In this document: positions 2,775 through 47,804 of the stretch, piece after piece
Numbering within the stretch: the stretch's first letter is position 1
How the letters are laid out: each line of letters opens with the position of its first letter
DNA from: Nemertoderma westbladi
Lineage: Eukaryota; Animalia; Xenacoelomorpha
DNA length: 64,000 bases
Reading direction: 5' to 3'
Assembly (NCBI GenBank): GCA_032718475.1
Contig: JAUCBJ010006766.1
Span: forward strand, 110,075-174,074
The notes under the pieces: generated by a model
Seen by the model: the letters and a program-made list of their open reading frames with translations, nothing else
What the model was told of the DNA's origin: nothing
The model's database searches: none
Translations under genes and position numbers: made by a program

Positions 2775-3127
2775 GTAAGCAATTCAAACATAAAGTAGTC
2801 GGTAATAGAATAATTCATAATAACAATACATTGGAAGTTAATGTCTGACCCATCGAAAATACGTTTATTGGTAAGAATTGAATGTGTAAAAGCTTTTGCG
2901 GATATAATCAGTCCCCCTGCCCGCAAAGTACCGTTGTAGGTGTTTTAACGGACATAAAAGTCATTCTTCTATATGTGTGCTTTGGCGGACATGGTAAGGC
3001 ACAAAACCCGCAATGCGTCAAATTCTCTAGCACAGTGTAGCCTTGATGATTCAGATTACGACATCTAACAGCTGGTTGCTGGCATGGAAACGGCCGTTGG
3101 ACACATGGTTCTTTGTTTCAGCTTAAC

Positions 3128-3146
3128 AGCCAATCAGAGCGATTTT
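3128..3146 (+). promoter_or_regulatory. Conserved CCAAT-box motif in the LTR (ccaatcagagcgatttt)
   Basis: The same motif is retained in all four long LTR copies, including the diverged solo LTR (about 54294). Confidence 0.45.
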
Positions 3147-3314
3147 TACTGTCGATGTGGAGATATTCTACAGATCGTGCTAGCAGTGTTCAGTCTTACG
3201 GTTTTTTCTTGATTATAGTTGTGTTGTTTCTATCTAGGCCAAGAACACCGGCTCTAGAGTCAATTCGTTTTCAGACTTTAGAAGAAACATTAGTAGGCTT
3301 AGATTATAGAACGT

Positions 3315-3325
3315 ATAACTGTTAT
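3315..3325 (+). other. Putative 11-nt self-primer in the LTR (ataactgttat)
   Basis: Exact reverse complement of the 11 nt following the LTR (4101-4111); conserved in the solo LTR at 54461-54471. Confidence 0.7.
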
Positions 3326-4100
3326 CAACCCAACCTTATTAACACAACTCATGCGGTACAATCTTACATACCAATCATATCATATCTTAACCTACCGTCT
3401 TAATGCTTTTTACTGTTGTTATTATTTGTATCAGTTGGTTGAATATTATTATTTGGAGAACATCTATAAAGAACCCAAATTTCCCAATTTTCTTGATACA
3501 CTACAGGTTAGAGAGACAGGTTACATATAGCGATTGCGACTTATATTATCGTGGTTTGTAGTGAGTTTAATGCTATTTGATAGGCACTACATGAGTCAAT
3601 TGCTGTTCTCTTTATATATGATAAAATTCATTGACGGTCGGCAGATTAGTGTGCAGTATTGTGCGTTACCGGTAGTGTGCATGATTGTGGCTGATAACTA
3701 AGCATTTCCTAAAGAATGCGCCTCATACGTGAATCATAAGCCTTACAGTCTTACAGTTGTGTTTAGTATAAGTCATATCTCTGTTTACCTAGATAGAGCG
3801 CCACGTCCTAAAGGAACTGTTAATATTTCCCGAAAGTGAATAATATTGGTCAGAAATTATTTATTAACGATCAATCGAATAATCCAGTACGCTTACACTG
3901 CAATAATAAAATCTAAGCCCCATCCGAATCCAGTCTCCCGGGTATATCCAGCGGGTGAATGGACGCGCACTAGGCTGGCTTCGGCTAATGTTGTGTTTAT
4001 TGGTATTAAATACTTGTCATTTACTAAAGTCTATTTATAAACCAAAAGACATATAAATTTTGGCAGGTTAAACTGCTTAAGGTCTTCAAAAGCGCGTACA

Positions 4101-4111
4101 ATAACAGTTAT
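4101..4111 (+). other. Non-tRNA primer-binding site (ataacagttat)
   Basis: Directly abuts the LTR-terminal CA, has no TGG, and is complementary to 3315-3325. Confidence 0.7.
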
Positions 4112-4439
4112 TTTCTTTATTGCAGTAAGCAATAAAGTTGAAAGTACCGGTCGACCGGTAAACCTGAATCGGTACTGCTGTAGGTCCGTAGGCCTAACTG
4201 CCTGAACCGGTACTGCTGTAGGTCTGTAGGCCCAACTGTCCTAACCGGTACTTCCAGTATAAGTACATTAGTATTATTCGATTTGATAATTATATACCGG
4301 TAGGTCTCGATATTAAATCGGGGACGCCTGGTTTTTATTGGGATTTTACTTAGGTCTATTTCTGTCAGTTTTATTTCCTAGTAAGTTAATATTGAGCTGA
4401 AGACGTGTAAGTCTGCTCAGATTGTTCAGATAATTGTAG

Positions 4440-5000
4440 GCCGGACTGTTGTCGGACTGTTGTTGGGTCTGGAGAAATTGCGGCGTGTGTAGAGTTTGTC
4501 TGATAAAGTGCCAGTAGGTAAGTTGGGGCAGCCAGAGCTGTAAGGTCAATCCCCTCTTAAAGAATAAGTCGTACTACCGTGTTAGAACGCATACTAACTA
4601 ACCATTTTGGAATCTGCATATACTGTAGTTTATTTAGGCTTGATAGTAGTCTGCCAGCGCTTTAGCCTGTGTTTGTTTGTGTGGTCTGTTCAGGTACCGT
4701 AATAGTTATTACTCAGATATTTTGTAGGCTGGATTGTTGTCTAGCTATTATTAGGTCTGAAGAGATTGCTGCGTGTGTAGAGTTTGTCTGATAAAGTGCC
4801 AGTTAGTAAGTTGGGGCAGCCAGAGCTGTAAGGTCAATCCCCTCTTAAAGAATAAGTCGTACTACCGTGTTAGAACGCATACTAACTAACCATTTTGGAA
4901 TCTGCACATACTGTAGTTTATTTAGGCTTGTGGTAGTCTGCCAGCGTTTGGTTTGTATTTTGTTTGAGTATTCTGTACGGGTAGCGTAATATTTATTATT
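4440..5000 (+). repeat. ~288-bp tandem duplication in the retrotransposon leader
   Basis: gcgtgtgtagagtttgtctgataaagtgccag recurs at 4483 and 4771; also in copy 2 (about 46870-47430). Shorter ~38-bp repeats lie at about 4150-4255. Confidence 0.85.
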
Positions 5001-6285
5001 CAGAGTTTATGCGATTATTCGCAACATTCATGTCCCCAAGTTTATTCCTACAGTAATTGTGCTTGTTACACATACCGTTATAGTTAAATTAACCCCGGTA
5101 CTACACGGGCTGCTTGGCGTAGGTAAAGACTGGTGACTTTGTGCTCCGGTCACTCCAGCAGATGCCGTTGTTCTTTTAACTGTTCAAGTATATTTAACTG
5201 CTAGTTATCTGTTTTAATAAGTACTTGTACCTAATTTAGGGTTTAGTGTACAGTGCTTTCCGAAAGTAATTAGTGTGTAGACAGTGTATTGTGTTGTAAA
5301 GTGGTTAATAGGCACGTTGGATCTGGTAGTCCGCGGTAATTAACTTCCAGGTAGGAACACTCCGTGATACATAACGTAGTACCTATAGCGATACGGCTAT
5401 AGGTCGTCAGACGGTGGTATTTTTCCTATCTGGACAGCGCAATATATATTTACTACTACTTATTATTTTCAAATACCGTAGTATCCTGTCTGTTGTAATA
5501 ACCAGAATTCTAACCCTTTGTTAGGCTGGTTTGTAGACTTCCTGTAAAATTACCCTAAAAATTCGTACGTGATATTTTTGTTATGTTTAGTTAGAGAATT
5601 AATCTCACCCGTATCGTACATAATTTGTAGTATTAAGTAACTTAGGTAAATTAGAATTATTTGTTTTAGTGTCCAACAAGTAGCACTTCACTGAGAGCGC
5701 ACAGCTTCTGTGTAGTGACTCCCCCCAGAAATAATAACATTTATTTCAAATATTGACAAAACCCATTTTAAACGGGTATATATCTATTATAAATCAACTC
5801 AAACGATTTATCAATAGTAGGCCTGCCATACAACAACTAGGTCTCAATATCAGTTGGACTACTGCTTAAATAACGGTAATAAAGTAACTAAGTAACCTTT
5901 AAAATTCAGAAATTCAATTATTTAAATAATTGATATACCGGTATTTACGATAGGCCTATTATCTTTACTTCTATAAATTTAGGCTGAAATTATACCGGTA
6001 TTCTGTAATTAATTCTAGTCTAGAATTATACTTATATACTATAAGTGTAGGCTGTATACCGGTATTCACGATAGGCCTATTATATATTTATATATATTTG
6101 TGTTAAAATTATATACTGGTACTCTGTGACAAACCTAGTTTACAATACTTATATATATTATAAGTGTATACCGGTATTCTAATATACTGTAATAAATTAC
6201 CGGTACTAGGCCAACGGTCATACTGAATTACTAGACTCGCTTTAACTGTAACTATAGCAGTAAGCATTCAACTGTATAGATAAAC

Positions 6286-9200
6286 ATGTCTGACACCCAG
6301 CAAAACCTGTCAGACAGTCTAATCGATACAACCATCTGTGACACAGATAGGAGTGTGGAGCGATTAAGAAAGGGGTTCAGCTCACCTCCTACTGAAAGAA
6401 AGGTCATCCCTCCAGTAGTAGTATCAGACCCTAGGCTAATCCAACACCGTAGGTCTATCATCGGCACTCGGGCCCAAGTCAAACGGAACCAGGAAGCAGC
6501 TGTCCAACAGCAGCAACATCCTAGTCAAGAAACTTGTTCCCAGCGACCCGATAGCTCCAGTAGTTCGGATACTGTAGAGCTGACCCCCGAACGCGGAGTG
6601 CAGATGGCGGCTACAGCCTACTCGGATCCCCTTCTCACCCTTCCTGCCGCAGTGCTAACTACTATATTGATTGCGGTGGAGGAACACCAAGTCGATTGGG
6701 CGAGAAGTGAGCGAGCGACCCACGATAGTTATGCGGGATACGCCAGGGAAGAATTGATGTCTATTGTCGAGTCATAATGGAACTTTCCCGGACCCGGACT
6801 CCCGTTAGATTTGTCCGAAGCTACTTGGGAAGACATCCACAGGATGGGAGTGACTAAAGATACGATGGATCCAGCTGTTTGGAAGAGGTCAGCAGCAGGA
6901 TATGTACAGGGATTCTTCGGCTCCTTAGAGCGATTAGAAGAACAACTGTTTCGACAACCCCAAGAACCTCAAGAGCAGGAAGAGCTGCTATATCAAGTAC
7001 GCGAAAGAACCCTACGCATTAGGCTAATCCTATCAGCCTTTGAGGAAACTTCCAAAAGAAGACAGGACACGTCGCTGCAAGTTGCTGTCAAGACTTGGTT
7101 CCAGCGGGTAGGTCTCAAAGTACAAGAAACGGTCCAGTGGAAATCCCAGCTGGCAGAGCGACCAACCTATGAAGAATCAACCGATGCCACTTTCTCTCAA
7201 GTGGAAAGCGAAGTGACAGCAGAGAGACCGCGAACGAGAGACGCCATCGACATCTATCTGTCAGACTATCAACGTTTTTTAGGTGATGAAGAGTTGAGGA
7301 GACGACTGGCTGGACTTCGCCCCAATAGTGAAGGAACCAAGCTTGTGTTGGACTCAATCGATGCAGAAATGTGGGCTGCAAACAAAGCTAAATTTGATGA
7401 AAAGCTCCGCCTCGCTAGAGTCCAAGAAGAACAAGTAAAGAAAAAACGTATAGAGGACAGAAAGGCAGTAGCAGCGGCAAAGGCGGCAGCGACAGTGGAA
7501 GAGGCAAAGGCGACAGTGGAAGAGGCAAAGGCGGCGGTGGAAGCAGCAAAAGCAACAGCAGCAATGGCATTGGCAGAAGCAGAACAGAGAGCGTCGGAAG
7601 AGACCACCCAACTGGAGTTGGAAAATCTTCAAGAGACGCAAGACTGCATAAATAAACAGTTAACTGCTAGTCAAATGCAGATGATGAGTCGATCTACTCC
7701 CAAGCGCCAAGGATACACATCATCGGAGGAAGGCGAGACCACCGATCCTGAAGGCGGAGGAAATAGATCTCGTCTAAGCAGGCGTAGAAAAACATCTCAT
7801 CGTCACAAATTGCCTGATTTGCCCCCAGCGGTTAGAAGACAACTAGCTAGCACAGACTTAGGTAGTACAGAACCCACAGACCAAATTATTAAGGTCAAAA
7901 GACTCCCTACCATAGTTGATGAGCCTGAAATAATTAGGCCTGTCGTTCCCAAAACCACTCCTGTGCTAGAGACCCCTGTACTTCCAGAGCTTAACTCTAA
8001 ATTCCCTTTACACAGTACTACACTGCCTGTACCCGGTAGAACAGTCCATGAGAAAATTCCTGTCCTGGACTCTGAGAGAGAAATCAAAGATTTGTCTCCC
8101 GTTGTCCCGCGTCGGCCCGCTACAATGTTGGCGACTCCCGCTTCGGTGGTCGAGTGGGTAGAGGAGGGACGGCGGGGGATGAATCTCCTGCTCGGACAGA
8201 TGCAGGAGACTGTCCACCAACTTAAGGGAACAGTAAGGGAAAGTAGGGCAGAATTGCAAGAAGTGCAGCAAAGTATCGCGCTAGAACGCGACAAATTAGT
8301 CAATATACAAAAGGGTATACCAATACCCCCAGTAACATTGTGTCAACCTGTTAGGTCTGAAGTATTACATGCGCAAGGTGTGGAGCCTACACGCATCTAT
8401 ACTGCTAGTGAAGTAGAAACTCCTATAGCAAACCCTATTAAGGGTGATTATAAACCTGTTGTTAATGATATTCCCTATAGACCTGATAATGATCCGAGAA
8501 ATTTATATACCGATAATTCGATATTAAATAACACGATGGCCCAAGAAAGCTTTACGCGTCAGATGGCTAGAACAGAAGCCCGCCAAGCGGTCAAAGTGGG
8601 AGAGATCGTCAAATTCAATGGAGATGAGATGAAATGGTTACCTTTCAATGAATATTACAAAGATAGCATACAGAACTCTGTACTATCTAACGGAGAGAAA
8701 CTTAGATTCCTCATCAAGTGCTTGGAAGGACCTCCCAAGTTAATGGCGTTAAAGTTTATTGGACATCCAGATGGATTAAGACAAGTTTGGGATACACTAA
8801 ACATCAGGTATGGTAATAGGACTAACATAGCTAGGTATTTGTATGCGAAATTAGTAGCGCCCCGAAAGTTCCTTAGCAGCGGGATTATAGAGTTTTCCGA
8901 TGAGATTCAGGAGATCTGTAGACAGCTAGCTTGGTTAGGTAAGTCTCAGGAATATCAGAGTTCCATGGTTGTTGGAGCCGTAGCATCTACTTTGCCAAAG
9001 GGTGGAGTAGGGACAAAAAGGTTCTCTATGTGATGGACCAGCAACAAAGGGACCCTATCATGGCTGATCTCATGTCATTCTTAAATGGAGAGGTAAGGTT
9101 ACAGCTCCTAAAGCAGTCCCGAGAGAAGACACCGGAAAATAAGGTGAGTGAAAAACCCGTTTCTAGGAGAAAGGTAACACCAGTTTGTTATACAGACGAC

Positions 9201-12200
9201 GGCGAAAGCCAAACCTCATACGAGGAGAATAGTGGGAAAGACACCGAAAGATTTTATTATGTCAATAAAACAAGAAAAGACTTAAGTAAATCTAAGCCTC
9301 GAACCAGTGACAGGAGAGAACAGGTAACAACAACTCCTCCTATGTCTCCTAAGAGAATTCATGGAAGAAAGCCTGAGGAAAGAACAAGTGTGCACAACAC
9401 CGCACAGGTTAAAGTAAGTAACATCAAACCCAAATGAAATGAAATGAAATGAAATGAAAAATGAAATCGGCCTACCATTTCGAAAACGAGAACCTAGATT
9501 TATAAATAACAGACCCTTGGCAGAGAAAAGAATCGCTCAATTACATCGACGCCTTACGGCTAATGCTTCAGCTAAAGAAATGTACCAAACTCAGTTGAAG
9601 AAATTTATTACAAAGGGATACGCGGAGCGAGTACCGGAAGGAACACCAGTGACTGAGAGAACGTATTACTTAACACATCATTACGTTCCCAAACCCGGTA
9701 AACCCCATGAAGTACGAGTCGTATTCGATGGCTCCGCTCTATATATGGGCCAATCCCTCAATTCCGAGTTGTTACCAGGACCCAACTTACTCCAATCTTT
9801 GTTGGGAATACTTTTAAGATTAAGACAATATTCCATCGCGTTCGCCTCCGATATAGAAGGAATGTTCCTACAAGTCAAGGCGCTGGATAGAGATAGAGAC
9901 AGCCTAAGATTTCTGTGGTGGCCTGAAGGAGATCTCAACCAGAAACCGGTAGAGTACTGGATGACCATCCAGGCTTTTGGGATCATATCAAGCCCTTCCA
10001 ACGCCTGCTCCGTGGTGCGAACCACTGCGAATGACAACCGAGACGCCTTCTCCAAAGAGGTGATAGATAACATCAAGCGCGATATATACATGGATGACAA
10101 TTTAAAGTCCCTTCCATCAGTAGAAGAAGCCATTGATGTCGCGAAAGGAACGGTAGAGTGTTTGAAAAGAGGTGGATTTCGACTGACGAAATTCACTAGC
10201 AACTCCCGTGAGTTTCTGGAAGCGATACCGGTAGAAGACCGAGGAACGAAAGACCTAGACTTAATAAAGGACGATCTTCCAGAAACCAAGACGCTTGGCT
10301 TGAAGTGGGACACTGAAAGAGATATCCTGTTTTTTCAGCTAAAACAGCGAGATAATCCAGTTCGGACCAAACGGATTTGTTTAAGTATCCTGAGCACTTA
10401 TTTCGACCCATTGGGATTTATTAGCCCAGTTATATTGATTGCTCGGAGTTTAGTACAACAAATGTGGCTTGAAAACCGCTCATGGGACGATCCACTTAAG
10501 GGAGAACTGTTAAAGAAATGGATGAAATGGGAAGATTCTCTACCTGCCATCGAGAGCTTTGTAATTTCCCGTGCATATTTTGGTCATGTTCTCCCTACTT
10601 ATTCCTATCAACTCCATGTGTTTGGAGACGCCAGCGACATGGGAATAGGTATAGTAGCATATCTGCGAGTCGAAACTCCGGATGGAATCAAAGTCGCCTT
10701 GGTTACCTCTAAGGCATTGATTAACAACAAGTTAAAGGTTCCTCGAGCGGAGTTAAAAGCGGCTTTATACGCTACAGCCATCGGCCGGAACGTAACAGAA
10801 CAAATCGACTATCCACTGGAGAAAACTGTTTATTGGACCGACGCTTTACTCGTGTTGGAGTATATAACCAATGAAGTCTGTCAGTTCAGCGTTTTTGTTA
10901 CTAACAGAGTAGCCATTATTCTTAGTCGCACAAAGATAGATCAATGGAGACATTGCCCCGGTACGATTAATCCAGCCGATATCGCCTCCAGGGGAGCAAC
11001 TCCACAGGAACTGATAGATACTCCAGACTGGTTGGGTGGACCCGACTTCCTGAGCAAGGAAGAGGATGAATGGCCTCCTCACCTTACTACGGCGGAAATT
11101 AGACAAGCCAAGGGAGCGGAGAAAGTCAAACCTAAAACCCGGGCGAGTAAATCGAAGTTATTTAAACCGACTATCGATCTATCTGTATTACATACTTCCG
11201 GAAACGATGCTTCGGATCCGCAATCCCTCGCCACAAATAAGTCTGTTGTGGAAATTAGAGATAGAGATTGGAAATCTGGAATACCAGACGTCTCGCAAGG
11301 AATCTCACCCCTGCTGCAGAGAGCAATGCATCACTACAGTTCCTGGAATCGGCTCTGTAAAGCCGTCACGTATTTAAGGAGATGTTTTCATCATCACTAC
11401 TCCAGGACGAAGACCATTAGTGATACCGCTCCATTGACATCTGCGCAAGTTCATGTTATTAAAAATTTACCCAAATATAAGACATCCGACCGGTTTCTAA
11501 AGGAAAAAATCAGTTACAAGGAGCATGAAGAAACCAATAAGCAGATACTGAGACTCCTGCAATGCTATGAGGATTCCGATAAGTATTTCCTGTTGTTGAG
11601 AAATCCGCAGATGCGCTTAAGGGATCGCTTCTCTAGCACAATGATAGATGGGTTAATACGTGTTGGAGGAAGGCTCACCAATGCGCCATTATCCTTTGAC
11701 ACTAAATTCCCCATACTCATTAGAAATCTTGAAGTACAAATCAAGATGATTGTAGATGTTCACAGTAAACTTTATCATGCTGGTAGAGAACGAGTTCTTA
11801 GCGAAATCCGAACTCGCTATTATTTTTATAAACCCCCAAGTTCTTAGGAACTGCATACCCTGTAGGAAAGCATTCAGTAGGCCTTTAACACAGCGAGAGG
11901 CAGAATTACCTAGGGAACGAGTAAGCTTCTATGAACCACCTTTTACTAATACTGGTGTAGATTTATTTGGCCCTATTGAAGTATATCGTGCTAGGACTAT
12001 AGTCAAGAGATGGTGTGTCATCTTCGTATGCATGACTTGTAGAGCCATCCATCTCGATATGGTGAACGATCTATCTACCAACAGCTTCGTCTTAAGTTTA
12101 CGCCGACAGATCGCTCGCTTCGGGACGAGTAATACCTTGAGATCGGATAAGGGAACGAACTTCATTGGTGCCAACAACAAAATACAGGCTTACGTGAAGG

Positions 12201-12958
12201 ACTGGAACCAAAGACAGGTGGACGATCAGCTAAGGATAACAGCGTCTAGCTGGACCTTCAACGCCGCCGACGCCCCTTGGTGGGGAGGAAGTTGGGAGAG
12301 ATTAATTAGAAGTGTCAAGACCGCATTTCACTTTATAGTGCCATGCCGCGCTTATCTCACCGACGAACTTTTGCGGACGTTAATGGAGGAAATAGCTGCC
12401 TATCTCAACGAGAGACCGCTTATGCCAGTCTCATCGAGTCCCGACTCCCTGGAAGCGTTAACACCCGCGCACTTCCTACTGAAGAAACCTGTAGCCATGC
12501 TCCCACGATCGGAGATTGCCGACGGAGACGAATACTGCCGTCGAACTTGGCAACTTATGCAGTTGCTATCCCGTCGTTTCGCTGACCATTTCGAGAAACA
12601 TTATCTGCCCACGCTACAACTTCGAACTAAGTGGTTTGCGCAGCAAGAAAACGTCAGCGCCGGAGATATGGTGCTTATTGTAGATTCAGACCTTCCACGT
12701 AAACGGTGGCAGACAGGTCGTATCATCGAGACTCACATCTCGGATGATGGTTTAGTACGCTCGGTAGAACTCGTCGTCATGCGGCGTAACTTCAAGAAGC
12801 CAGGCATAATCTTTGAGACGCAACAACTCAACCGCCCAGTTGGTCGTTTATGTTTACTGGAAAGAGACAGAGAACTCTCCGGAAACTATGGAAGGCAAGA
12901 CACTCTTCCCACGACCACCTCCCTAATTCCTCAAACATCTAGGGACTCCCCAACGTGA
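6286..12958 (+). pseudogene. BEL/Pao gag-pol of copy 1 (disrupted)
   Basis: Gag (KFNGDEMKWLPF), RT (RVVFDGS, SDIEGMFLQV, YMDD), RNase H (HVFGDASD, PRAEL, YWTD, NPADIASRG), integrase (GVDLFGP, SDKGTNF, WGGSWERL). Lesions versus copy 2: stop at 6775, frameshift near 9010, ~1.4 kb deletion near 9433 (zinc knuckles and protease), frameshift near 11830. Confidence 0.93.
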
Positions 12959-14501: not shown

Positions 14502-14581
14502 GGGGCAACGAGAGGTAGGCAGCGACGCCCGCTAGCCTAAACATAAACTCATTTGGATATTAATAAACTCAGATAGCAGAT

Positions 14582-17476
14582 ATGACGGAGTTGATAGAAG
14601 ATGATCTTGGTATTAGGGAGCGATATACTCTACCTTTACAAGCATTTGTGGATAGCTTAATACGCGGTGAAGCCGATCCAACCATTACGGAGGACGATGG
14701 TCGTTATATCGAACCGCCGATGTCCCAAGAGCAACTTACGCGTGAATTGGACTATCGAAAATTCACCGCTCGCTATACGAATCGTAATGGTACGTATATG
14801 GACTTCTTAACTACCGGCTATCCTATCGATTTACATGATACGGACGATGTAGACACAGAAAGGGAAATGGTTCTATTTAAATATCATACCCAGCGGAGTC
14901 GTAACGATAAACCGAGAATAGAACACGAAAATTCTATTCGTAACAGACTGGAAAGAGAAAACGTTGAAGAACCGGATAAGCGCATCGACTTCAACGACTA
15001 CCTGGAATTTTTGAGAGAAACTTATCTCAACATCACCAGTCAGCAGAACCTAGAGACTCGATATCCTCAAGGTATACATCATGACCCTATGGTAGAACTC
15101 AAACGGCTCTATTTCACTATGATGTACCTTACCGCCAATCGTCCACTACCTGTTATCCCGGATAGTTTTGAACAAATGGAAGAATATTGCAAAACTGGAG
15201 AACGATCACCCGCGTTTCCTCTACAGGATGTACGTCTTTGGTATTATTGTGACGAATGCCCTAGACCCAACCAACAAACTGAAAGACATAAACATCCGCG
15301 GAGACGTTGCGCTAAACACAGCTTTACGCATTATACTTACGGGAGTTTCGAGCGAAACCTGTTCGACGTATCACCTACGATCGCTCGTCTTAAACGATCA
15401 CTAAATAAACCTATGATCAGAGTTCCGGAATACTCGGTCAGGCCTCCTCATTCCTTAGTGAGACCTCAAACTCTTGATCCTAACAGTATCACTGATCCTC
15501 CCGAACTATATTCCCTGTTCAAAGACTTAGTGTTACCCGAACAATTAATCGGTGGTGCTCCGGTAGTGGGTTCGTTAGACATTCGCCCATCCTACTTAGC
15601 CGGATTGGGACGCGGGCAGCTAATATCGCCATTTGATCCTTACAATCGTCCAGGATTAAACCCGATGCAACCCGCCACGGAAGTCGAGGAGAGCGTTATA
15701 AGAAACGCTTTAGACGCCATTCGACAGAAGATCGGAAAGGGAACACAAGATTGTTTAGAGAAACGTAAATTACAACAACAAGTCCAATCGGTGAAGGAGT
15801 TAGCCTTGCCACAGTTCGATAGAGAAATCCAAAACCTCGAGGAGGACATCGAGCTTGGACGCACGTATTCTCTACAAGAGTTTTTAGATGAACGCTTACA
15901 GAGACAAGCGGAAGAAAATCTACTCGAGGAGAAACACACGAAAATGGACGAGAGAGAAGAAGCCGCTTTAGCCCAACCTGAAGCTCAAATCCTTATGACA
16001 GATCTCTACTCTAAAACTGTCCGTCATCCCTTGATGATTCCACATTTCGGAGACAAACTCTTCGCGACGATACAACCTCAACCGGTTGATATCAGTACAG
16101 GATCGCAATATCTTATCGCTGACGCCCCTATGTTACAGCGTCCGCCGATCGAGGCTGCTCGTGTTGACGGTATACTCGTTGAACCTCCGGACAATCGAGC
16201 GGATCTTGTCCGTCGTATGGTACACGATGTCAACATACGCGCTAGACCTTTACAGAACTCGTTTTATGGGATTAAAGACCACCCTTATTACGTTAATCTG
16301 ACTCAGTATTATATGGTAAAACCAGAAGACCCGACGCATAATTTAAAGTTTCTACCACTAATAAATCCTCTAGACATTGTCGAACTCGAACAATTGCAGA
16401 AACATCTGGATCAGTTAGTAAAGGTAAACTCATTTAGAAAACCATATAACATTTCTCGAATCGAGAAAGATATAGAACCTCCTTATAACCTCGATGGATT
16501 TATTAAAACTCGATTAGTCCATTGGAATCTAGATGTATTATTTGAAGAAGAGAAAATACAAAGATATGGAACTGTGGAGACGTATACCACTCGGCATATG
16601 AAGTATAGTGATCTCCCTGACGCTAACCAATGCGCCACCTTGTGGCATCCAGTAGGGATGACCCTAGAGAACGCCACCAAGGAGTGGAATGAAACTCTTA
16701 ATGTTATTGAGATGTATGGAGTTGTCACCTACGATAATGAAGGTAGCGTTCCGGTCGGAGAACTAGGAACTACGCGCATGATCCACATACGCGGATTAGC
16801 TGGTTCTACCCACGTGTTTACTCAAGCGTGTTCCGACGTGATTGATTATTCCTTTGAAACTCTCACCGAAACACAAAAGAATCTCCGACATGGACAATTC
16901 GAACTCGCGCAGCGTTACGTCATTGACACCGAACGCAAACCGGCCATGGGTATCGATGGATCGATGTTACCCCAGCCCGTACTCGAGATGTTGTTCAACG
17001 AAAGAATCCTTAAAATCGGCTCAGCTGTTTATGGAGATCTCCAAAACGACTTTCGGAATATGGAGAACATTCCATACCCTTTCGTTGATACTCAGCTGAT
17101 TGCTCCCTGGGCAGAAGGTCGAGGTTTCTTTCGCACCATGTATGCTAATACGTCTAGCAACATTACAAAGGTGCAACGAACTTCCATCGGACATCTTGCC
17201 TTTCAGGAATACGGATGGAATTTCAAAGTCGGAAATCCCATCAACTATCAACAAGTATACGGAGACCATTATTCTCGATTATACTTTGATGGACCATTGA
17301 CCGCACCTGGCGCCGTGTATAGCTTCATGAGTGTTCCACTCCGTCCCTCCTTAGCTATTTACACGATCTTTGAAAACACCGCACTTGCCGGTTGGCTAGC
17401 CGATGTGTGCAGTCGTACTATACGCGCCCATCCATTAATACTTGGGACCAAACTCGCTAAGCTAGATGAACATAAT
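14582..17476 (+). pseudogene. Extra ORF of copy 1, 5' part (Cys/His motif, coiled coil, DEDDy-like 3'-5' exonuclease), interrupted by a LINE
   Basis: Colinear with the copy 2 ORF up to KLDEHN; exonuclease-like motifs TYDNEG, ILKIGSAVYGD, FVDT and PLRPSLAIYTIFE. Confidence 0.85.
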
Positions 17477-17606
17477 GTATGGATCTGTATAATGGATCTG
17501 TAGGAAATTTTTGAGTTTACTAGCAATTTGCTAACTGCAATACTGCAATACAGTAATAACCTAACCTAACTGATAATCTGACTGTCAGACTAACCACTGA
17601 CTGTAT

Positions 17607-23527: not shown

Positions 23528-23561
<34 letters not shown>

Positions 23562-23563
<2 letters not shown>

Positions 23564-28970: not shown

Positions 28971-29321
28971 CATAAAACCAATTATGTGTGTAAGGATCAA
29001 TGAGGGATGCATTATTTGTTGACATTTATTTTCGTGCCGCTATCCTGCCTCGGGATGTGTCACGAAATTATTGTGTCTGGGTGACTGTGATGATAATTAT
29101 ATATTACCGGCAACTGTTTACTTAATTAATTAGCTAATTTTGTGTATTAGTTCAACTCCACTGTAGTCTTGGCAGGCGAGCCCCTGCAAGCCCTACTTGA
29201 CACTTATTTCCAGCTATTATCAGCTAAAGTAATTCATTACGGTGCTGCCTCATTTATATATATATATATATTTGGGTTATGGAAATAAAAGAAAGTATTA
29301 TTATATAAAGTATTATATAAT

Positions 29322-30680
29322 AAATTCATCCGCTTCGAATGTTTCCGGCGATTTTTAACCCCGTTCCGCAACGTGGATAGCCAATTTAAAGACCGCGCTT
29401 TGACCAAGCTCAGCCTAAGAAACTCAGCTGCAGAGAAGTTGGATAGCGCTGGATTTGCCATTTTCAAAGAGATTTGTATATCGAACTTGCACTCCTCTGT
29501 TATACAAAGACCTCGAATCCCCACAGGTTATTCTGTCGTGGAAATTCAGACAATAGGTCCACTTGAAGAGACAGACACTCCCACCTCAGCTATGCACTGG
29601 GAAGACGAACCAATATGCCTAGAATCTGAGGAGATTCAACCTATCGCGCCCCGGAACAGCGACAACGATTATATCCTAGAATGGTATCAAGGTCCACAGT
29701 GTCTCACTGCGTACGATTATCGCCATGCCAACTATGTTTCTCGGCAACGTTGTCGGTTGTGCGCATCGAGAGACCATGTTACGCCCATGGACACAAACGT
29801 CCGCTGTTCCTATTTCCAAGAACAACCGACGATGGAAATTTATTGCGCATATTGCAGACTCAATAACTTGCATATTTTTGCGGTTTGCCCTCAATTTATG
29901 ACTCAATGTCACCATTGTCAACTAAAGGGACACGCCAGTTTCGATTGCCCTTTTAATCACGATTTGGAAAGCGTAGATGAAATGATCACACTACGTTACA
30001 TCAGAGCTTGGGAAGCGAACGCTGATTTACATTGTGATTCGCGCCATCGCTATTATCCTGGACGCGCTTACGAAGGAGTTTATGCGTTCCATCCTTATCT
30101 ATTCGCTTCTGTCGAACAGAAATCACGCATATCGAGTTACGAACTACTGAAGCGCGTCGGAGAATGTATTTCAACCAAATTCGTACGCAAATTTCTCAGG
30201 AGTGTTAATCCTAGCGACCTTCATTCCTATAACTTAATCAATTATATCCGTCAGGATCCGGACTATGGAGACTTATTTGTTAACTCACACCCCGAGTTAC
30301 AGGAAGTATATCGACGGCCTTACGAATACCGAGCCCGCGAACGCGAGTTGGAAAGAACCATTAAACCCAGGAGGTTTCTGACTGCCTATGGTCCACCCAC
30401 AGCTCTCGTTCAGACCACTCGTAAAGGACCCGTAAGAGCGGCTGTCCTAAAACGCGCTCTCAAGGCCGTTAGACCCCTCTCCCCCGACGTTGATGTCAAT
30501 CAACCCGGCACTTCGACTGGCGGATACACCGACCATAATCCTACACCCTCTGATGCAATCATATTGCACCCTTCACCCAGGAGTTATAGCCCTCCTTGTA
30601 AAGTGGCTCGCCCCAAAGAGAAAAGGACTCTGGCCAGCTTTAAAAAACTGCGTAAACGCCGTCCGCGCAAGAAAGACTAA
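29322..30680 (+). pseudogene. Extra ORF of copy 1, 3' part (CCHC zinc knuckles, basic C-terminus)
   Basis: Resumes at KFIRFECF as in copy 2; CRLC..H, CAYC-X5-H-X4-C, CHHC-X4-H-X4-C; ends KKLRKRRPRKKD. Confidence 0.87.
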
Positions 30681-30750: not shown

Positions 30751-30758
30751 GGGAGCGG
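30751..30758 (+). other. Polypurine tract of copy 1
   Basis: gggagcgg immediately before the 3' LTR TG; same sequence in copy 2 at 32148-32155 (-). Confidence 0.75.
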
Positions 30759-30863
30759 TGTAAAAGCTTTTGCGGATATAATCAGTCCCCCTGCCCGCAA
30801 AGTACCGTTGTAGGTGTTTTAACGGACATAAAAGTCATTCTTCTATATGTGTGCTTTGGCGGA
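30759..30863 (+). repeat. Truncated 3' LTR of copy 1 (105 bp)
   Basis: Matches 2885-2989, then is cut by the LTR end of copy 2. Confidence 0.9.
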
Positions 30864-32147
30864 TGTACGCGCTTTTGAAGACCTTTAGCAGTTTAACCTG
30901 CCAAAATTTATATGTCTTTTGGTTTATAAATATACTTTAGAAGATGACAAATATTTAATACCAATAAACACAACATTAGCAGAAGCCAGCCTAGTGCGCG
31001 TCCATTCACCCGCTGGATATTCCCGGGAGACTGGATTCTGAGGGCTTAGATTATTATTGCAGTGTAAGCTTACTGTACTGTATTATTCGATTGATCGTTA
31101 ATAATTAATTTCTGACTAATATTATTCACTTTCGGGAAATATTAACAGTTCCTTTAGGACGTGGCGCTCTATCTAAGTAAACAGAGATATGACTTATACT
31201 AATCACAACGGTAAGTCGGTAAGGCTTAAGATTCACGTATGAGGCGCATTCTTTAGGAAATGCTTAGTTATCAATCACAATCATGCACACTACCGGTAAC
31301 ACACAATACTGCTCACTAATTTGCCGACCGTCAATGAATTTTATCATATATAAAGAGAACAGCAACGGACCAATGTAGTGCTTATCAAATAGCATTAAAT
31401 TCACTACAAACCACAACAATATAAGTCGCAATCGCTATATATAACCCGTCTCTCTAACCTGTAGTGTATCAAGAAAATTGGGAAATTTGGGTTCTTTATA
31501 TATGTTCTCCAAATAATATTCAACCAAAACACAACAGTAAATAGCAGTATAATAATGTATGTTGAACCGATAATGTAAGAAACAAAGTATGATAAGATAA
31601 GTGAATTGATATGTTATGATATGAATTGAATTGAATTGATAACAGTCATACGCTCTATAATTTAAGCCTACTAATGTTTCTTCTAAAAGTATGAAACGAA
31701 TTGACTCTAGAGCCGTTGTTCCTGGCCTAGATAGCAACAACAAAGTATCAAGAAAAAACAGTAAGACAGAACACTCTCCTTATGATCGACCAAAAAGCTA
31801 CACGTCGACAGGAAAAATCGCTCTGATTGGCTCAAGCCAAACAAAGAACCATGTGGCCAATGGCTGTTTCCATGTCAGCAACCAGCTGTTAGATGTCGTA
31901 ATATGAATCATCACGGCTAAGCTGTGAAAGGTATTTGGTGCATTGCAGGTTTTTTGCCTTACCATGTCCGCTAAAACACGTATATAGCAGAATGACTTTT
32001 ATGTCCGTTAAAACACCTGTAACGGTACCTTGCGGGCGAGGGGAATATATATACAGTTAGAGAACCTTTTTTAGAGTATTCCAGCGCCTGGGGGGAAACT
32101 GGATTGCGAAGCAAAAGGACCAGTTATATCCCACAGAAGCTTTTACA
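30864..32147 (-). repeat. 3' LTR of copy 2
   Basis: TG...CA ends, preceded by the PPT; primer-like 11-mer at 31639-31649. Confidence 0.92.
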
Positions 32148-38105: not shown

Positions 38106-41100
38106 TTACGTGGGGGAGTCCCTAGATGTTTGAGGAATTAGGGAGGTGGTCGTGGGAAGAGTGTCTTGCCTTCCATAGTTCCCGGAGAGTTCTCTGTCTC
38201 TTTCCAGTAAACATAAACGACCAACTGGGCGATTGAGTTGTTGCGTCTCAAAGATGATGCCTGGCTTCTTGAAGTTACGCCGCATGACGATGAGTTCTAC
38301 CGAGCGTACTAAACCATCATCTGAAATGTGTGTCTCGATGATACGACCTGTCTGCCACCGTTTACGTGGGAGGTCTGGATCTACAATAAGCACCATATCT
38401 CTGGCGCTGACGTTTTCTTGCTGCGCAAACCACTTAGTTCGAAGTTGTAGCGTGGGCAGATAATGTTTCTCGAAATGGTCAGCGAAACGACGGGATAGCA
38501 ACTGCATAAGTTGCCAAGTTCGACGGCAGTATTCGTCTCCGTCGGCAATCTCTGATCGTGGGAGCATGGCTACAGGTTTCTTCAGTAGGAAGTGCGCGGG
38601 TGTTAGCGCTTCCAGGGAATCGGGACTCGATGAGACTGGCATAAGCGGTCTCTCGTTGAGATAGGCAGCGATTTCCTCCATTAACGTCCGCAAAAGTTCG
38701 TCGGTGAGATACGCGCGGCATGGCACTATAAAGTGAAATGCGGTTTTGACACTTCGAATTAATCTCTCCCAACTTCCTCCCCACCAAGGGGTGTCGGCAG
38801 CGTTGAAGGTCCAGCTAGACGCTGTTATCCTTAGCTGGTCGTCCACCTGTCATTGGTTCCAGTCCTTCACGTAAGCCTGTATCTCGTTGTTGGCACCTAT
38901 GAAGTTCGTTCCTTTATCCGATCTCATAGTATTACTCGTCCCGAAGCGAGCGATCTGTCGTCGTAAACTTAAGACGAAGCTGTTAGTAGATAGATCGTTC
39001 ACCATATCGAGATGGATGGCTCTACAAGTCATGCACACGAAGATGACACACCATCTCTTGACTATAGTCCTCGCACGATATACTTCAATAGGGCCAAATA
39101 AATCTACACCAGTATTAGTAAAAGGTGGTTCATAGAAGCTTACTCGTTCCCTAGGTAATTCTGCCTCTCGCTGTGATGCTTTCCTACAGGGTATGCAGTT
39201 CCTAAGAACTTGGTTCAGAGCTCTACGGGGTTTATCAAAATAATAGCGAGTTCGAATTTCGCTAAGAATTCGTTCTCTACCAGCATGATAAAGTTTACCG
39301 TGAACGTCTACAATCATCTTGATTTGTACTTCAAGATTTCTAATAAGTATTGGGAATTTGGTGTCAAAGGATAAGGGCGCGTTGGTGAGTCTTCCTCCAA
39401 CACGTATTAACCCATCTATCATTGTGCTCGAGAATCGATCCCTTAAGCGCATCTGCGGATTTCTCAACAACAGGAAGTACTTTTCGGAATCCTCATAGCA
39501 TTGCAGGAGTCTCAGTATCTGCTTATTTGTTTCTTCATGCTCCTGGTGACTAATTTTCTCTTTTAGAAAACGATCAGATATCTTATATTTGGGTAAATTC
39601 TTAATAACATGAACTTGTGCAGATGTCAATGGAGCGTGATCGCTAGTGGTCTTCGTCCTGGAGTAGTGATGATGAAAACATCGTCTTAAATATGTGACGG
39701 CTTTACAGAGCCGATTCCAGGAACTGTAATGATGCATTGCTCTCTGCAGCATGGGTGAGATTCCTTGCGAGACGTCTGGTATTCCAGATTTCCAATCTTT
39801 ATCTCTAATTTCCACAACACAATTTCTACACAACTCTAATTTCCGCTACTATACCTATTCCCATGTCGCTGGCGTCTCCAAACACATGGAGTTGATAGGA
39901 ATACGTAGGAAGAACATGGCCAAAATATGCACGGGAAATTATAAAGTTCTCGATGGCAGGTAGAGAATCCTCCCATTTCATCCATTTCTTTAACAATTCC
40001 CCTTTAAGCGGATCGTCCCATGAGTGGTTTTCAAGCCACATCTGTTGTACTAAACTCCGAGCAATCAATATAACTGGGCTAATAAATCCCAATGGGTCGA
40101 AATAAGTGCTCAGGATGCTTAAACAAATCCGTTTGGTCCGAACTGGATTATCTCGCTGTTTTAACTGAAAAAACAGGATGTCTCTTTCAGTGTCCCACTT
40201 CAAGCCTAGCGTCTTGGTTTCAGGAAGATCGTCCTTTATTAAGTCTAGGTCTTTCGTTCCTCGGTCTTCTACCGGTATGGCTTCCAGAAACTCACGGGAG
40301 TTGCTAGTGAATTTCGTCAGTCGAAATCCACCTCTTTTCAAACACTCTACCGTTCCTTTCGCGACAGCTATGGCTTCTTCTACTGAGGGAAGGGACCTTA
40401 AATTGTCGTCCATGTATATATTGCGTTTTATGTTGTCTATCACTTCTTTGGAGAAGGAGTCTCGGTTGTCATTCGCAGTGGTTCGCACCACGGAGCAGGC
40501 GTTGGAAGGGCTTGATATGATCCCAAAAGCCTGGATGGTCATCCAGTACTCTACCGGTTTCTGGTTGAGGTCTCCTTCAGGCCACCACAGAAATCTCAGG
40601 CTGTCTCTATCTCTATCCAGCGCCTTGACTTGTAAGAACATTCCTTCTATATCAGAGGCGAACGCGATGGAATATTGTCTTAATCTTAATAGTATTCCCA
40701 ACAAAGATTGGAGTAAGTTGGGTCCTGGTAACAACTCGGAATTGAGGGATTGGCCCATATATAAAGCAGAGCCATCAAATACGACTCGTACTTCTTGAGG
40801 TTTACCGGGTTTGGGAACGTAATGATGTGTTAAATAATACGTTCTCTCAGTCACTGGTGTTCCTTCCGGTACTCGCTCCGCGTATCCCTTTGTTATAAAT
40901 TTCTTCAGCTGAGTTTGGTACATTTCTTTCGCTGAAGCATTAGCTGTAAGGCGTCGATATAATTGAGCGATTCTTTTCTCTGCCAAGGGTCTGTTATTTA
41001 TAAATCTAGGTTCTCGTTTTCGAAATGGTAGGCCGATTTCATACCTACCTTGGTCCTTTAAAAAACGTGTAGTTGTTTCCTGGATTTGCTTGGCTCTTTC

Positions 41101-44100
41101 TTCTTCTATCGATAGAGCCTTATCATATGAATTGGGCTCTACCAGTTCCTGAGTAAAGAATCGTACGGCTAGTTCGTCCCGAGTTCTAGCGTTGTAGCGC
41201 TCTATCTCATCGTTTAGTTCGTCATTGTAAGCGATGGGTTCCGATGGGTGAATCAGTTGACATAGGTTCACCTGACTTTTCCAAGTTTGGTTTTCTGTAA
41301 GTAGGTCGATTGTGTTCTCTTCATCGAAGAGTTGGTAGATGTCGTCATTATCTGAGGAGTATGGTGTTCCCTCAGTTAGTTCGTCCACCTCACTGCTCTC
41401 CACTTCCCAATCATGTACTTGGTATGTTTGTTCTTGGGGCATTCTCTCTTCGAGAGTCCTGCGGGAAGGGCCAGTAAAGTACCAACCTACTCTAGTTCTT
41501 ACCGCATAGGTTTGCAGTGGCTGCGGTTGAGCAGGCCGTTTCTCTAATGTTTCGAGCGCCTCGTGCGCGTTTTGGCCGATGAGGATTTGCACTCCAGGAT
41601 AATCTGTCTGGAATCGAGGTATCTTAAGATGTTGGATGCTCTCATCTTCGTCCCAATTATAAAGGTCTGCTTGAGTAGTAGCGAAGTTCTTTATAGCCAC
41701 CATTTTTACCGACCTTATACCTTGTGTTCCTAACTTATCCTGGGGGTGGACAACACACCTACATAGTAATCTGCCGTTAGGGTAGATTTCCAAACCTGCA
41801 TAATTCCTGACATATTCAATTTAGTCCGGAACTTGGGTTGTCCAGCAAAGATATCTTCGGCTAGTTCTTGATCGATGAATGTTCCTGTGCTGCCGGAGTC
41901 AAGGAGGGCGTTCACTATGTAACTTTTGTTAAGACCGTGAACTCTTACCTGCACTACAGGAAATTCTCTGATTCCTACGTTGGAAGTTGGAGCTTTCCAA
42001 GATGGTTGTTTGGCAAAAGTAGTTGGGGGAAACTCATTGTTGGTGTCCTTTTCATAAGTAAGTGCTCGATACACTGCGGTATTGATTAGATAACAGGATT
42101 CGTTGGCGTCGGAGAATTCGTCAGTATAGAATCCTTCCATCTCAGACTCCTGATCAGTGTCGTTTACATCACTGAATTGGACATGTAGTTCGGGCTCACT
42201 TACCTGACTCTGTTTGTCTCGTTCGAACTCACTGTGTAACAAGATGTGATGTTTCGCGCCACACTTTGCACACTTTATGTCGGAGTAACAGGTTCGCCGT
42301 TGGTGTCCTGGTCTGAGGCAATTATAGCATAACCGCTTGTCCCACACAACTGCACGTCTGTCTACAAGGGATTTCTTTAGAAATTCAGCACACGCACTCA
42401 AACGGTGGGTCCCGTCGCACAGCGCACAGTTAGGTTTTATGTTACTCACTTTACCTTGGGTAACTTGATGCACTCTCGTTTTTTCTTCGGGTTTTCTTCG
42501 GTGCATTCTGTTAGGAGACTGAGGGGGGTTCTTGGTAATCTGTTCTCTCCTATCGTTGTTTCGAGCCTTATATTTACTTACATCTTTTGGGGTTTTGTCA
42601 ACGTAGTAAGATCGGTCAGTGTCTTTCCCGCTGTCCTCTTCTTGAGAAACTTGGCTTTCGCCGTCGTCAGTGTAACACACCGGTGTTATTCTTCTCCTAG
42701 AAGCGGGTTTCTCACTTACCTTATTTTCCGATGTTTTCTCTCTGGACTGCTTGATGAGTTGTAGTTTTACCTCACCATCTAAGAAGGACATGAGATCAGC
42801 CATGGTAGGACTTCGTTGTTGTTGTTCATTCATGTACAACACTTTCTTGTCCCAGCGTGTACATACTCCACCTTTTGGTAAAGAAGAGACTACGGCTCCA
42901 ATAACCATTGAACTCTGATATTCATGAGACTTACCTAACCAGTCCAATTGTCTACAGATCTCCTGAATTTCATCGGAAAACTCTATAATCCCGCTACTAA
43001 GGAAGTGTCGGGGGGCTACTAATTTTGCATACAAATACTTAGCTATGTTATCCTTGTTACCATACCTGATGTTTAATGTATCCCATACTTGTCTTAATCC
43101 TTCTGGATGTCCAATAAACTTTAACGCCATTAATCTGGGAGGTCCTTCCAAGCACTTGATGAGGAACCTAAGTTTCTCTCCGTTAGATAGTACAGAGTTT
43201 TGTATACTATCTTTGTAATATTCGTTGAAAGGTAACCATTTCATCTCATCTCCATTGAATTTGACGATCTCTCCCACTTTGACCGCTTGGCGGGCTTCTG
43301 TTCTAGCCATCTGACGCGTAAAGCTTTCTTGGGCCATCGTGTTATTTAATATCGAATTATCGGTATATAAATTTCTCGGATCATTGTCAGGTCTATAAGG
43401 GATATCATTAATAACAGGTCTATAATCACCCTTAATAGGGTTTGTTATAGGAGTTTCTACTTCACTAGCAGTATAGATGCGTGTAGGCTCCACACCTTGC
43501 GCATGTAATACTTCAGACCTAACAGGTTGACACAATGTTACAGGGGGTATTGGTATCCCCTTTTGGATATTGACTAATTTGTCGCGTTCTAGCATGATAC
43601 TTTGCTGCACTTCTTGCAATTCGGCCCTACCTTCCCTTACTGTTCCCTTAAGTTGGTGGACAGTCTCCTGCATCTGTCCGAGCAGGAGATTCATCCCCCG
43701 CCGTCCCTCCTCTACCCACTCGACCGCCGAAGCGGGAGTCGCCAACATTGTAGCGGGCTGACGTGGGACGACGGGAGACAAATCTTTGATTTCTCTCTCA
43801 GCTTCCAGGACAGGAATATTCTCATGGACTGTTCTACCGGGTACAGGCAGTGTAGTACTGTGTAAAGGGAACTTAGAGTTAAGCTCTGGAAGTACAGGGG
43901 TCTCTAGCACAGATGTGACTTTGGGAACGACAGGCCTAATTATTTCAGGCTCATCAACTATAGTAGGGAGTTTTTTGACCTTAATAATTTGGTCTGTAGG
44001 TTCTATTCTACTTAAGTCGGTGCTAGCTAGTTGTCTCTTAACAGCTGGGGGCAAATCAGGCAATTTGTGACGGTAAGATGTTTTTCTACGCCGGCTTAGA

Positions 44101-45571
44101 CGAGATCTATTTCCTCCGCCTTCAGGATCGGTGGTTTCACTTTCCTCCGATGACGTATATCCCATCCGTTTGGGAGTAGATTTTCTCATCATCTGCATGT
44201 GACTAGCAGTTAACTGTTTATTTATGTTGTCTTGCGTCTCTTGCAGATTTTCCAACTCCAGTTGGGTAGTCTCTTCAGACGCTCTCTGTTCTGCGTCTGC
44301 CAATGCTATTGCTGCTGCTGCTTTGGCTGCTTCTACTGTCGCTGCTGCCTTTGCCGCTTCCACTGCCGCTGCCGCTTTCGCCGCTGCTACTGCCTTTTTG
44401 TCCTCTATCCGCTTCTTCTTTACTTGTTCTTCTTGGACTCTAGCGAGGCGGAGTTTTTCATCAAATTCAGCTTGGTTAGCAGCTAACATTTCAGCATCGA
44501 TTGAATCTAACACACGCTGGGTTCCTTCACTATTGGGGGAAAGTCCAGACAGCCGTCTCCTCAACTCTTCGTCTCCTAGGAATCGCTGATAGTCGGACAG
44601 ATAAATGTGGATGGCGTCTCTCGTTCGTGGTTTCTCTGAGGTCTCTTCGCCTTCCACTTGAGAAAGGGTGACATCGGTTGGTTCTTCATAAGTTAGTCTC
44701 TCAGACAGCTGGGATTTCCACTGGTCTGTTTCTTGTACTTGGAGACCTACCCGCTGGAACCACGTTTTGACAGCAACCTGCAGCGATGTGTCCTGTCTTC
44801 TTTTGGAAGTTTCCTCAAAAGCTGATAGGATTAGTCGAATGCGTAGGGTTCTTTCGCGTACTTGATATAGCAGTTCTTCCTGCTCTTGAGGTCCTTGGGG
44901 TTGTCGAAACAGTTGTTCTTCTAATCTCTCTAAGGAGCCAAAGAATCCCTGCACATATCCTGCTGCCAACTCTTCCAAACAGCTGGATCCATCGTATCTT
45001 TAGCCACTCCCATCCTGTGTATATCTTCCCAAGTAGCCTCTGACAGATCTAACGGGAGTCCGGGTCCGGGAAAGTTCCATTGTGACTCGACAATCGACAT
45101 CAATTCTTCCCTGGCGTATCCCGCATAATTATCTTGGGTCGCTCGCTTATTTCTCGCCCAATCTGCTTGATGTTCCTCCACCGCAATCGATATAGTTGTT
45201 AGCACTGCGGCAGGAAGGGTGAGAAGGGGGTCCGAGTAGGCTTCAGCCGTCATCTGCAATCCGCGTTCGGGGGTCAGTTCGACAGTATCCGAACTACTGG
45301 AGCTATCGGATCGCTGGGAACAAATTTCTTGACTAGGCTGTTGCTGCTGTGGGACAGCTGCTTCCTGGTTCCGTTTGACTTGGGCCCGAGTGCCGATGAT
45401 GGACCTACGGTGTTGGATTAGCTTAGGGTCCGATATCACTACTGGAGTAATGACTTTTCTTTCAGTAGGAGGTGAGCTGAACTCCTTTCTTAAACGCTCC
45501 ACACTCCTATCTGTGTCACAGATGGTTGTATCGATTAGACTGTCTGACAGGTTTTGCTGAGTGTCAGACAT
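38106..45571 (-). pseudogene. BEL/Pao gag-pol of copy 2 (disrupted)
   Basis: Triple BEL zinc knuckle (CALC..H..C, CYNC..H..C, CAKC..HH..LH), protease ALLDSGS, RT YMDD, integrase. Frameshifts near 44970 and 41790, ~0.58 kb RNase H deletion near 39845, stop at 38850. Confidence 0.93.
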
Positions 45572-47793: not shown

Positions 47794-47804
47794 ATGACTG
47801 TTAT
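47794..47804 (-). other. Non-tRNA primer-binding site of copy 2 (ataacagtcat)
   Basis: Abuts the LTR; complementary to atgactgttat at 48574-48564 in the same LTR. Confidence 0.7.

Follow-up and report, generated by a model that had tools for sequence, protein, structure and literature searches.

Results

Organisation of the locus

The window, i.e. the whole 64,000-nucleotide stretch of Nemertoderma westbladi DNA analysed here, contains two BEL/Pao copies and one diverged solo LTR, and the four LTR copies can be aligned with each other, which fixed the LTR ends as TGTA...TACA (Table 1). Both copies are disrupted by frame changes and deletions, copy 1 additionally by LINE insertions. Two LINEs of opposite orientation, with endonuclease and RT, lie at 19002-22295 (minus) and 24765-28970 (plus) within 17500-29316 and split the extra ORF of copy 1. 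Copy 2 sits inside the 3' LTR of copy 1 in opposite orientation (junctions 30863-30864 and 49075) with no TSD, and the remainder of this LTR is missing from the window; we regard the copy 1/copy 2 junction as a rearrangement or recombination. Because copy 2 has no TSD and its LTRs are 5.6% different, it may itself be a recombinant.

Several repeats were found around the elements: a 290-bp direct duplication at 4426-5004, which both copies have in their 2.2-kb 5' leader, a tandem array of ~73-bp units at 49072-49945 abutting the end of the copy 2 5' LTR, an array of 36-bp units at 56284-59200 (more than 70 copies, ~92% alike, open in several frames), and a near-palindromic patch at 510-985 built of short-period inverted and direct repeats. 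A splice-donor-like site at 3505-3512 occurs in all four LTRs, is stronger in the solo LTR and may be used in making a subgenomic RNA from which the extra ORF is expressed. In a contig survey, the family was very high-copy in the organism of the public DNA runs X1-X3.

Table 1 Features of the two BEL/Pao copies and the solo LTR in the window
Feature	Position	Strand	Remarks
Copy 1 5' LTR	2885..4100	+	1216 bp, TGTA...TACA; ends set by TSD-flanked solo LTR
CCAAT box, predicted promoter element	3130..3134	+	in 4/4 LTRs
Initiator-like TCAGTC, candidate start 125 nt before 11-mer	3190..3195	+	in 2/4 LTRs
Predicted self-primer ATAACTGTTAT, 5' arm of central duplex D1	3315..3325	+	
H1 5' arm	3321..3330	+	overlaps primer 3' half, spans predicted cut 3325/3326; double changes (3328, 3329); 9/10 pairs formed in copy 1
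H2 5' arm	3538..3548	+	11 pairs, double change in solo LTR
H1 3' arm	3689..3698	+	holds mimic of first five PBS letters
H2 3' arm	3764..3774	+	
Side duplex D3, LTR arm	3897..3906	+	10 bp; pairs with leader 4117-4126
H3 5' arm	3924..3936	+	C-G to A-U in copy 2
Side duplex D2, LTR arm	3960..3968	+	8/9 pairs, A-U to U-A in solo LTR
H3 3' arm	3972..3984	+	
D2 3' arm (U5 end)	4092..4100	+	adjoins PBS, ends at last LTR base
Primer-binding site (PBS) ATAACAGTTAT	4101..4111	+	without TGG
Local hairpin behind PBS	4115..4137	+	5' arm 4117-4126 alternatively pairs with 3897-3906 (D3)
Copy 1 gag-pol, several reading-frame pieces	6280..12958	+	DUF1759, Peptidase_A17, DUF5641; internal deletion relative to copy 2
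Copy 1 extra ORF, part one	14567..17503	+	interrupted by LINE insertions
Copy 1 extra ORF, part two	29289..30680	+	
Polypurine tract plus initial 105 bp of copy 1 3' LTR	30751..30863	+	matches 5' LTR exactly; truncated by copy 2
Copy 2 3' LTR	30864..32147	-	11-mer ATGACTGTTAT at 31649-31639
Copy 2 extra ORF, 1284 aa	32226..36080	-	likely DEDDy-exonuclease-like domain and CCHC knuckles; weak matches
Copy 2 gag-pol, several reading-frame pieces	38106..45577	-	
Copy 2 PBS ATAACAGTCAT	47794..47804	-	read 47804-47794
Copy 2 5' LTR	47805..49075	-	11-mer ATGACTGTTAT at 48574-48564
Diverged solo LTR	54059..55226	+	TSD ATTGA at 54054-54058 and 55227-55231; 11-mer ATAACTGTTAT at 54461-54471
Solo LTR D2 arms	55091-55099, 55218-55226	+	

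The element belongs to BEL/Pao

The initial annotation, made from the sequence alone, had assigned the element to BEL/Pao, and this was borne out by Pfam matches to DUF1759, Peptidase_A17 and DUF5641 (E-values 1e-12 to 3e-36) and by the grouping of the RT. Pfam also found an integrase zinc domain, and no chromodomain match in the element. The domain set, the Gag-Pol order PR-RT-RH-IN, the TG...CA LTRs of 1.2 kb, the 5-bp TSD and the polypurine tract are all as expected of BEL/Pao and shared with the Belpaoviridae, including Achilles of the olive fly. The nearest proteins are ~40% identical, the named ones coming from aquatic invertebrates and fish, and PF05380 is carried by all but two of the 120 protein matches listed. 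A quick maximum-likelihood tree was built from 72 RT-RNase H rows (the window element, 27 of 80 related loci and 44 proteins, no gypsy or copia outgroup). In this tree the element forms a long branch (1.65) in a 58-row aquatic group, apart from the insect rows (support 98), and falls outside the 51-row clade that contains the loci tested below. Because of this long branch outside their clade, traits of the relatives can be carried over to the window element only by inference.

The ICTV description of Belpaoviridae gives an 18-nt PBS for tRNA-Arg or tRNA-Gly and calls replication ‘poorly understood’ (PMC8742986), so that the initial annotation was right to name tRNA priming as the published description; for Achilles, a tRNA-Tyr PBS is reported (excerpts of PMC4580426). 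Unlike these elements, the window element lacks a PBS for a tRNA 3' end, with no TGG at offsets 0-4 in either copy, is ~18 kb long and carries an extra ORF that is unlike env. The missing tRNA PBS counts against the ICTV description, not against the protein-based placement.

The extra ORF after pol (1284 aa) gave zero Pfam matches, and a word-based search returned no homologues. Atlas features suggest a DEDDy/EXD1-like exonuclease with CCHC (score 0.87, taken as a lead only), and one relative was found (E-value 4e-7, 29% identity), itself with weak exonuclease and zinc-knuckle matches; a single-sequence fold reached pLDDT 30 and was left unused. The ORF thus likely encodes a DEDDy-exonuclease-like domain with CCHC knuckles. 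DEDDy ORF3s have been described in LTR elements of bdelloids (excerpts of PMC5408684).

The sequence behind the LTR is complementary to an 11-mer inside it

Six 11-mers had been annotated as two complementary sites, and all of them were found in place: ATAACTGTTAT in the 5' LTR of copy 1 and in the solo LTR, ATAACAGTTAT directly behind the former, ATAACAGTCAT in copy 2 and ATGACTGTTAT twice in its LTRs (Table 1). The end of the LTR is indeed set by the solo LTR with its 5-bp duplication on both sides. The sequence following the LTR lacks TGG and is, as proposed, the exact reverse complement of the LTR 11-mer over 11 bp at offset 0 in both copies. This duplex, D1, is AU-rich (-10.1 kcal/mol). 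In copy 2 both sites changed together, replacing an A-U by a G-C pair; this covariation is a single event, which by our estimate of position and base would be met in about 1 of 20 cases and could have passed via a neutral G-U.

The claim that the 11-mer survived in the diverged solo LTR beside variable sequence held in conservation windows over the four LTRs, as 10 of 11 columns are invariant in windows 3306-3316 and 3317-3327 and only 1-3 of 11 in each of the six windows from 3328 to 3393. Contigs of public DNA runs likewise diverge at 3326-3329. At both 11-mers the contig survey revealed no variant of at least 8%, with 17 variable places in 861 nt, coverage being poor there since the flanks diverge. 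A search of sequencing runs listed no RNA run that carries the element, and contigs of run X4, the one that is possibly RNA, do not cover 3210-3359. The exact 22-nt LTR pattern had no match in metagenome contigs, and a protein-guided scan of viral contigs produced 402 pattern matches and no relatives.

By chance, 0.0012 matches of this 11-mer would be expected in the LTR. An exact complement in the LTR exists for 3 of 2089 leader 11-mers, one of the three being the first 11-mer past the LTR end. The copy 1 PBS is nearly a palindrome, with 10 of 11 positions identical in its reverse complement, a caveat already raised in the initial annotation. The copy 2 changes lie at position 3 of one site and position 9 of the other, and of the 11 PBS positions in related elements 0-6 agree with the reverse complement, yet these sites pair over 11-15 nt with the LTR. 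The self-complementary PBS is therefore neither chance nor a palindrome artefact. We conclude that the complementarity of the 11-mers is real, and the sequences point to self-priming as its likely function.

Covarying helices accompany the predicted primer in the LTR

Among 88 nine-base helices in the copy 1 LTR, five are kept in all four LTRs; each of these shows a double change and is located 3' of 3320. When columns were shuffled within 40-column blocks, 25 runs gave 0-2 such matches. The five matches merge into four helices, H1, H2, H3 and D2. A looser scan that allowed G-U kept 31 of 169 helices, seven with a double change, two of these with an arm upstream of 3315. By energy alone D2 and H1 are not significant, as 25-26 of 100 (D2) and 49-170 of 300 shuffles (H1) were equally good, and the support for D2 and H1 comes from four related LTRs.

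A further duplex, D3, joins the LTR to the leader; equally good shuffles numbered 2 of 100 for copy 1 and 9 of 100 for copy 2. In contigs of run X3 each arm of D3 has a substitution and an insertion of one letter, and the changes on the two arms match each other, as judged by eye from separate, unlinked contigs. In folding with the PBS constrained to be open, D2 had P 0.37 in copy 1 and 0.95 in copy 2, and D3 had P 0.4 and 0.78, respectively. H1 and D1 compete for the last five letters of the primer. The predicted structure of the window element contains an arrangement of D1, D2 and D3 like that of the Tf1 pretzel, where two side duplexes stand beside the PBS (excerpts of bioRxiv 2022.12.06.519325).

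Related elements carry predicted splice-built primers

Relatives were taken from the 80 related loci. The coding region is bracketed by a direct repeat in 36 of them, and in 13 of these the downstream copy extends beyond the repeat, so that the LTR end is fixed. After L046 (repeat within coding sequence) and L063 (short tandem array) had been left out, 11 elements with ~40% RT identity to the window element remained. All 11 have a PBS without TGG that pairs over 11-15 nt with their own LTR at offsets 0-4, contiguously in three and only across a GT-AG junction in eight, and none of 154 cross-element PBS/LTR swaps reached 10 nt (maximum 9); ends and donor patterns were chosen after an open scan had been seen, the null was run under the same rules, and the loci may stem from few hosts. 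A match that exists only after splicing implies that the partner is RNA. The 11 PBS sequences are all different, none beginning with TGG. In the eight spliced cases the first 4-9 primer letters end an exon. The primer lies 71-216 nt from the LTR end in the relatives, compared with 775 nt in the window. Directly behind it, all four LTRs of the window have a C, as do 8 of the 11 relatives.

Two cases link contiguous and spliced primers. L055 (1-326; 6694-7103) has a 5' LTR with the acceptor end of an intron and a 3' LTR with a precise intron-less junction that completes the PBS complement, and the contiguous L016 is sister to the spliced L017 (support 99). Given both LTR states in L055 and this sister pair, ready-made primers likely arise through intron loss, and the 11-mer of the window is likely such an intron-less form. 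An H1-like duplex over the predicted cut was enriched in the 11 relatives (Fisher p 0.003; p 0.8 at a control position). The side duplexes of the pretzel were not general among them, with the 3' side in 2 of 11 and the 5' side in none.

No match of at least 10 nt emerged, under the rules used here, at L022, L033, L039, L042 and L067, five loci whose terminal inverted repeats are good and whose LTRs are in part incomplete. LTR ends taken from terminal inverted repeats alone (53 candidate ends at 28 loci, three scoring at least 10, none TGG) missed ends found by eye and were not counted. Two candidate introns in the window were also discarded. Joining 3320 to three CAG/GTTA sites gave only 10 bp at offset 1 with a poor donor, GTTATC, so the contiguous 11-mer was kept, and a loop-shortening intron at 3507-4066 was rejected for the genomic RNA, since this stretch is kept in all four LTRs. 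L018 and L019 are tandem BEL/Pao units with a period of ~6.1 kb and apparently common LTRs.

Altogether, the four covarying LTR helices and the predicted splice-built primers of the relatives go beyond the initial annotation, and in the window the predicted primer is ready-made, in a family that forms a long branch, measures 18 kb and has five covarying helices.

Promoter motifs and folding give different indications of the transcript start

In 4 of the 11 relatives a canonical TATA box was found 124-167 nt before the primer, and two more have a weak one at 120-128 nt; in none was a canonical box present 25-35 nt before it. In the window, each of the four LTRs has a conserved CCAAT box 185 nt upstream of the 11-mer and two have an initiator-like motif at -125; a TATA box near -30 of the 11-mer was not found. 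In folding of copy 1, D1 was kept (P 0.6-0.99) when the RNA started 0-65 nt upstream of the 11-mer and lost (P 0.0) with starts at 3191 or 3130; in copy 2 it was kept only when the RNA started at the 11-mer. Since D1 is kept only for near starts, folding favours a start near the 11-mer.

The self-priming proposal of the initial annotation thus stands with respect to the self-complementary PBS. That the 11-mer forms the first 11 nt of the RNA became doubtful in view of the exon ends in 8 of 11 relatives, the positions of the TATA boxes and the CCAAT box at -185. Provided that self-priming occurs in cis, the RNA quite probably starts upstream of the 11-mer. A start upstream of 3315 is compatible with self-priming and would represent a variant unlike Tf1.

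Discussion

On balance we favour a reading in which the element primes reverse transcription with its own LTR 11-mer. The 11-mer would probably lie ~90-125 nt from the 5' end of the transcript, and cleavage behind 3325 would release it. For this reading, the complementary sites, the helices and the relatives provide the arguments. In the predicted fold, D2 and D3 would flank the PBS and leave it open, and H1 would keep the 3' half of the primer and the bond 3325/3326 in duplex. A nick at this bond, by analogy with Tf1 made by the RNase H of the element, would create the 3'-OH, and the freed 11-mer would move onto the PBS. RT would then copy from 4100 back to 3326 to give the strong-stop product, and after strand transfer the sequence up to 3325 would be recopied from the 3' LTR. 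Changes in the LTR would reach the PBS when the primer is copied in plus-strand synthesis. The upstream part would be recovered from the 3' LTR, which could account for the relatives' retained intron ending just before the cut; occasional splicing in the 3' copy would in turn yield a ready-made primer as in the window.

More tentatively, the same may hold for a large aquatic branch of BEL/Pao, where tRNA priming would have been replaced by an internal self-primer, either splice-assembled or ready-made, that is covered at the cut by a PBS-mimic helix, nicked, and strand-exchanged to the PBS.

The alternative closest to this is priming strictly as in Tf1, with a start at 3315, the 11-mer as the first 11 nt and RNase H cleaving the bond of bases 11 and 12 within a three-duplex pretzel. 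In Tf1, 11 bases pair and RNase H cuts at this bond (excerpts of PMC7175516 and PMC4600332), and the length of 11 and the offset of 0 equal those of Tf1 (excerpts of PMC7175516). Two side duplexes are predicted as in the pretzel (excerpts of bioRxiv 2022.12.06.519325), there is a T-A step at 3314-3315, the conserved block 3284-3327 could be a core promoter, folding favours the near start, and the kept helices all lie 3' of 3320. The promoter motifs argue against such a start, with no TATA box near -30, CCAAT at -185 and canonical TATA boxes far upstream of the primer in four relatives; moreover, if the transcripts of the eight spliced relatives (of 11) began at the primer, their first exons would be 4-9 nt long. 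We therefore consider this alternative unlikely.

Still less probable is an element-derived primer acting in trans, i.e. a short RNA cut from another LTR transcript (the second genome copy in the particle, a solo LTR or a 3' LTR) that anneals to the PBS. In its favour, 775 nt is a large loop for an AU-rich duplex of 11 bp to close, the solo LTR retains the 11-mer, and copies of the family are very numerous. In copy 2, however, the matched changes stand in cis at both sites, and the predicted duplexes D2, D3 and H1 likewise form in cis, near the PBS and the cut.

A host RNA such as a half tRNA-Asn might also prime, the LTR 11-mer merely guarding the PBS as a structural switch. The anticodon loop of tRNA-Asn resembles the core of the 11-mer, and the alternative folds (H1 versus D1, hairpin versus D3) would suit a switch. 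Half-tRNA priming does exist in Ty1/copia lineages (excerpts of PMC6317226 and PMC5445492). Each of the 11 different PBSs of the relatives, however, matches its own LTR or splice junction, and no single tRNA fragment fits both alleles of the window perfectly. Host priming of this kind appears quite improbable. No tRNA genes for comparison were found in the window or in the 52 of 80 loci scanned. Finally, a chance or near-palindromic DNA motif repeated twice without RNA pairing is very improbable, as the near-palindrome of the copy 1 PBS is outweighed by copy 2 changes that fit pairing and not direct repetition, by the low chance expectation and by the non-palindromic PBSs of the relatives.

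Self-priming has been described for Tf1/sushi and predicted for Tcn1 and the copia TAR lineage (excerpts of PMC6317226). As in the Ty3/gypsy chromoviruses Tf1, Tf2, Tj1 and Tosmo, in Tf1/sushi generally and in Tcn1, the PBS of the window element adjoins the 5' LTR, an 11-nt LTR complement is present and a tRNA site is not (excerpts of PMC7175516 and PMC4600332). Unlike Tf1/sushi, it is a BEL/Pao element without a chromodomain match, its primer is likely internal, the loop is 775 nt long and H1 lies over the cut; its relatives, moreover, would mostly assemble the primer by splicing. The element would hence work like Tf1 but is not a member of the Tf1/sushi group. The TAR lineage of Ty1/copia (Houba, Osr-1) is similar in its predicted self-priming, with an LTR complement of at least 10 bp to the post-LTR sequence, and shows that self-priming arose more than once; these are plant copia elements, and excerpts of the same paper (PMC6317226) mention neither a splice-built primer nor covarying helices. 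Fungal GalEa copia elements with a Conserved Hairpin Site also have no tRNA PBS, and immediately behind their 5' LTR stand a short near-palindromic motif and a hairpin; the authors describing them found no LTR complement (excerpts of PMC5445492), whereas that of the window is exact and covarying.

Our literature search, to which subscription journals, Repbase notes and supplements did not belong, found no publication on BEL/Pao self-priming. It is absent from the sections available of PMC3601003, PMC5445492, PMC8220671, PMC5443660, PMC3286476, PMC2864245 and PMC5408684, and the supplements of BEL/Pao surveys and of PMC6317226 may bear PBS tables. By term search, the main text of the Sinbad paper contains neither ‘PBS’ nor ‘tRNA’, and that of the BEL/Pao survey neither ‘primer’, ‘PBS’ nor ‘tRNA’.

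For those annotating such elements, the self-complement gives a rule for locating LTR ends. The proposed mechanism makes exact and cheap predictions at the RNA level, namely a cut at 3325/3326 and five named helices. Self-priming would account for two traits of aquatic BEL/Pao elements, the lack of TGG behind their LTRs and the introns within these. A BEL/Pao case, if true, would place self-priming in all three LTR superfamilies, of which one gypsy group is published and one copia lineage predicted. Priming from within the RNA, often by a splice-built primer, would differ from the mechanism of Tf1. For the aquatic BEL/Pao branch this would mean an independent invention of self-priming and an RNA switch that links splicing and folding to the start of reverse transcription.
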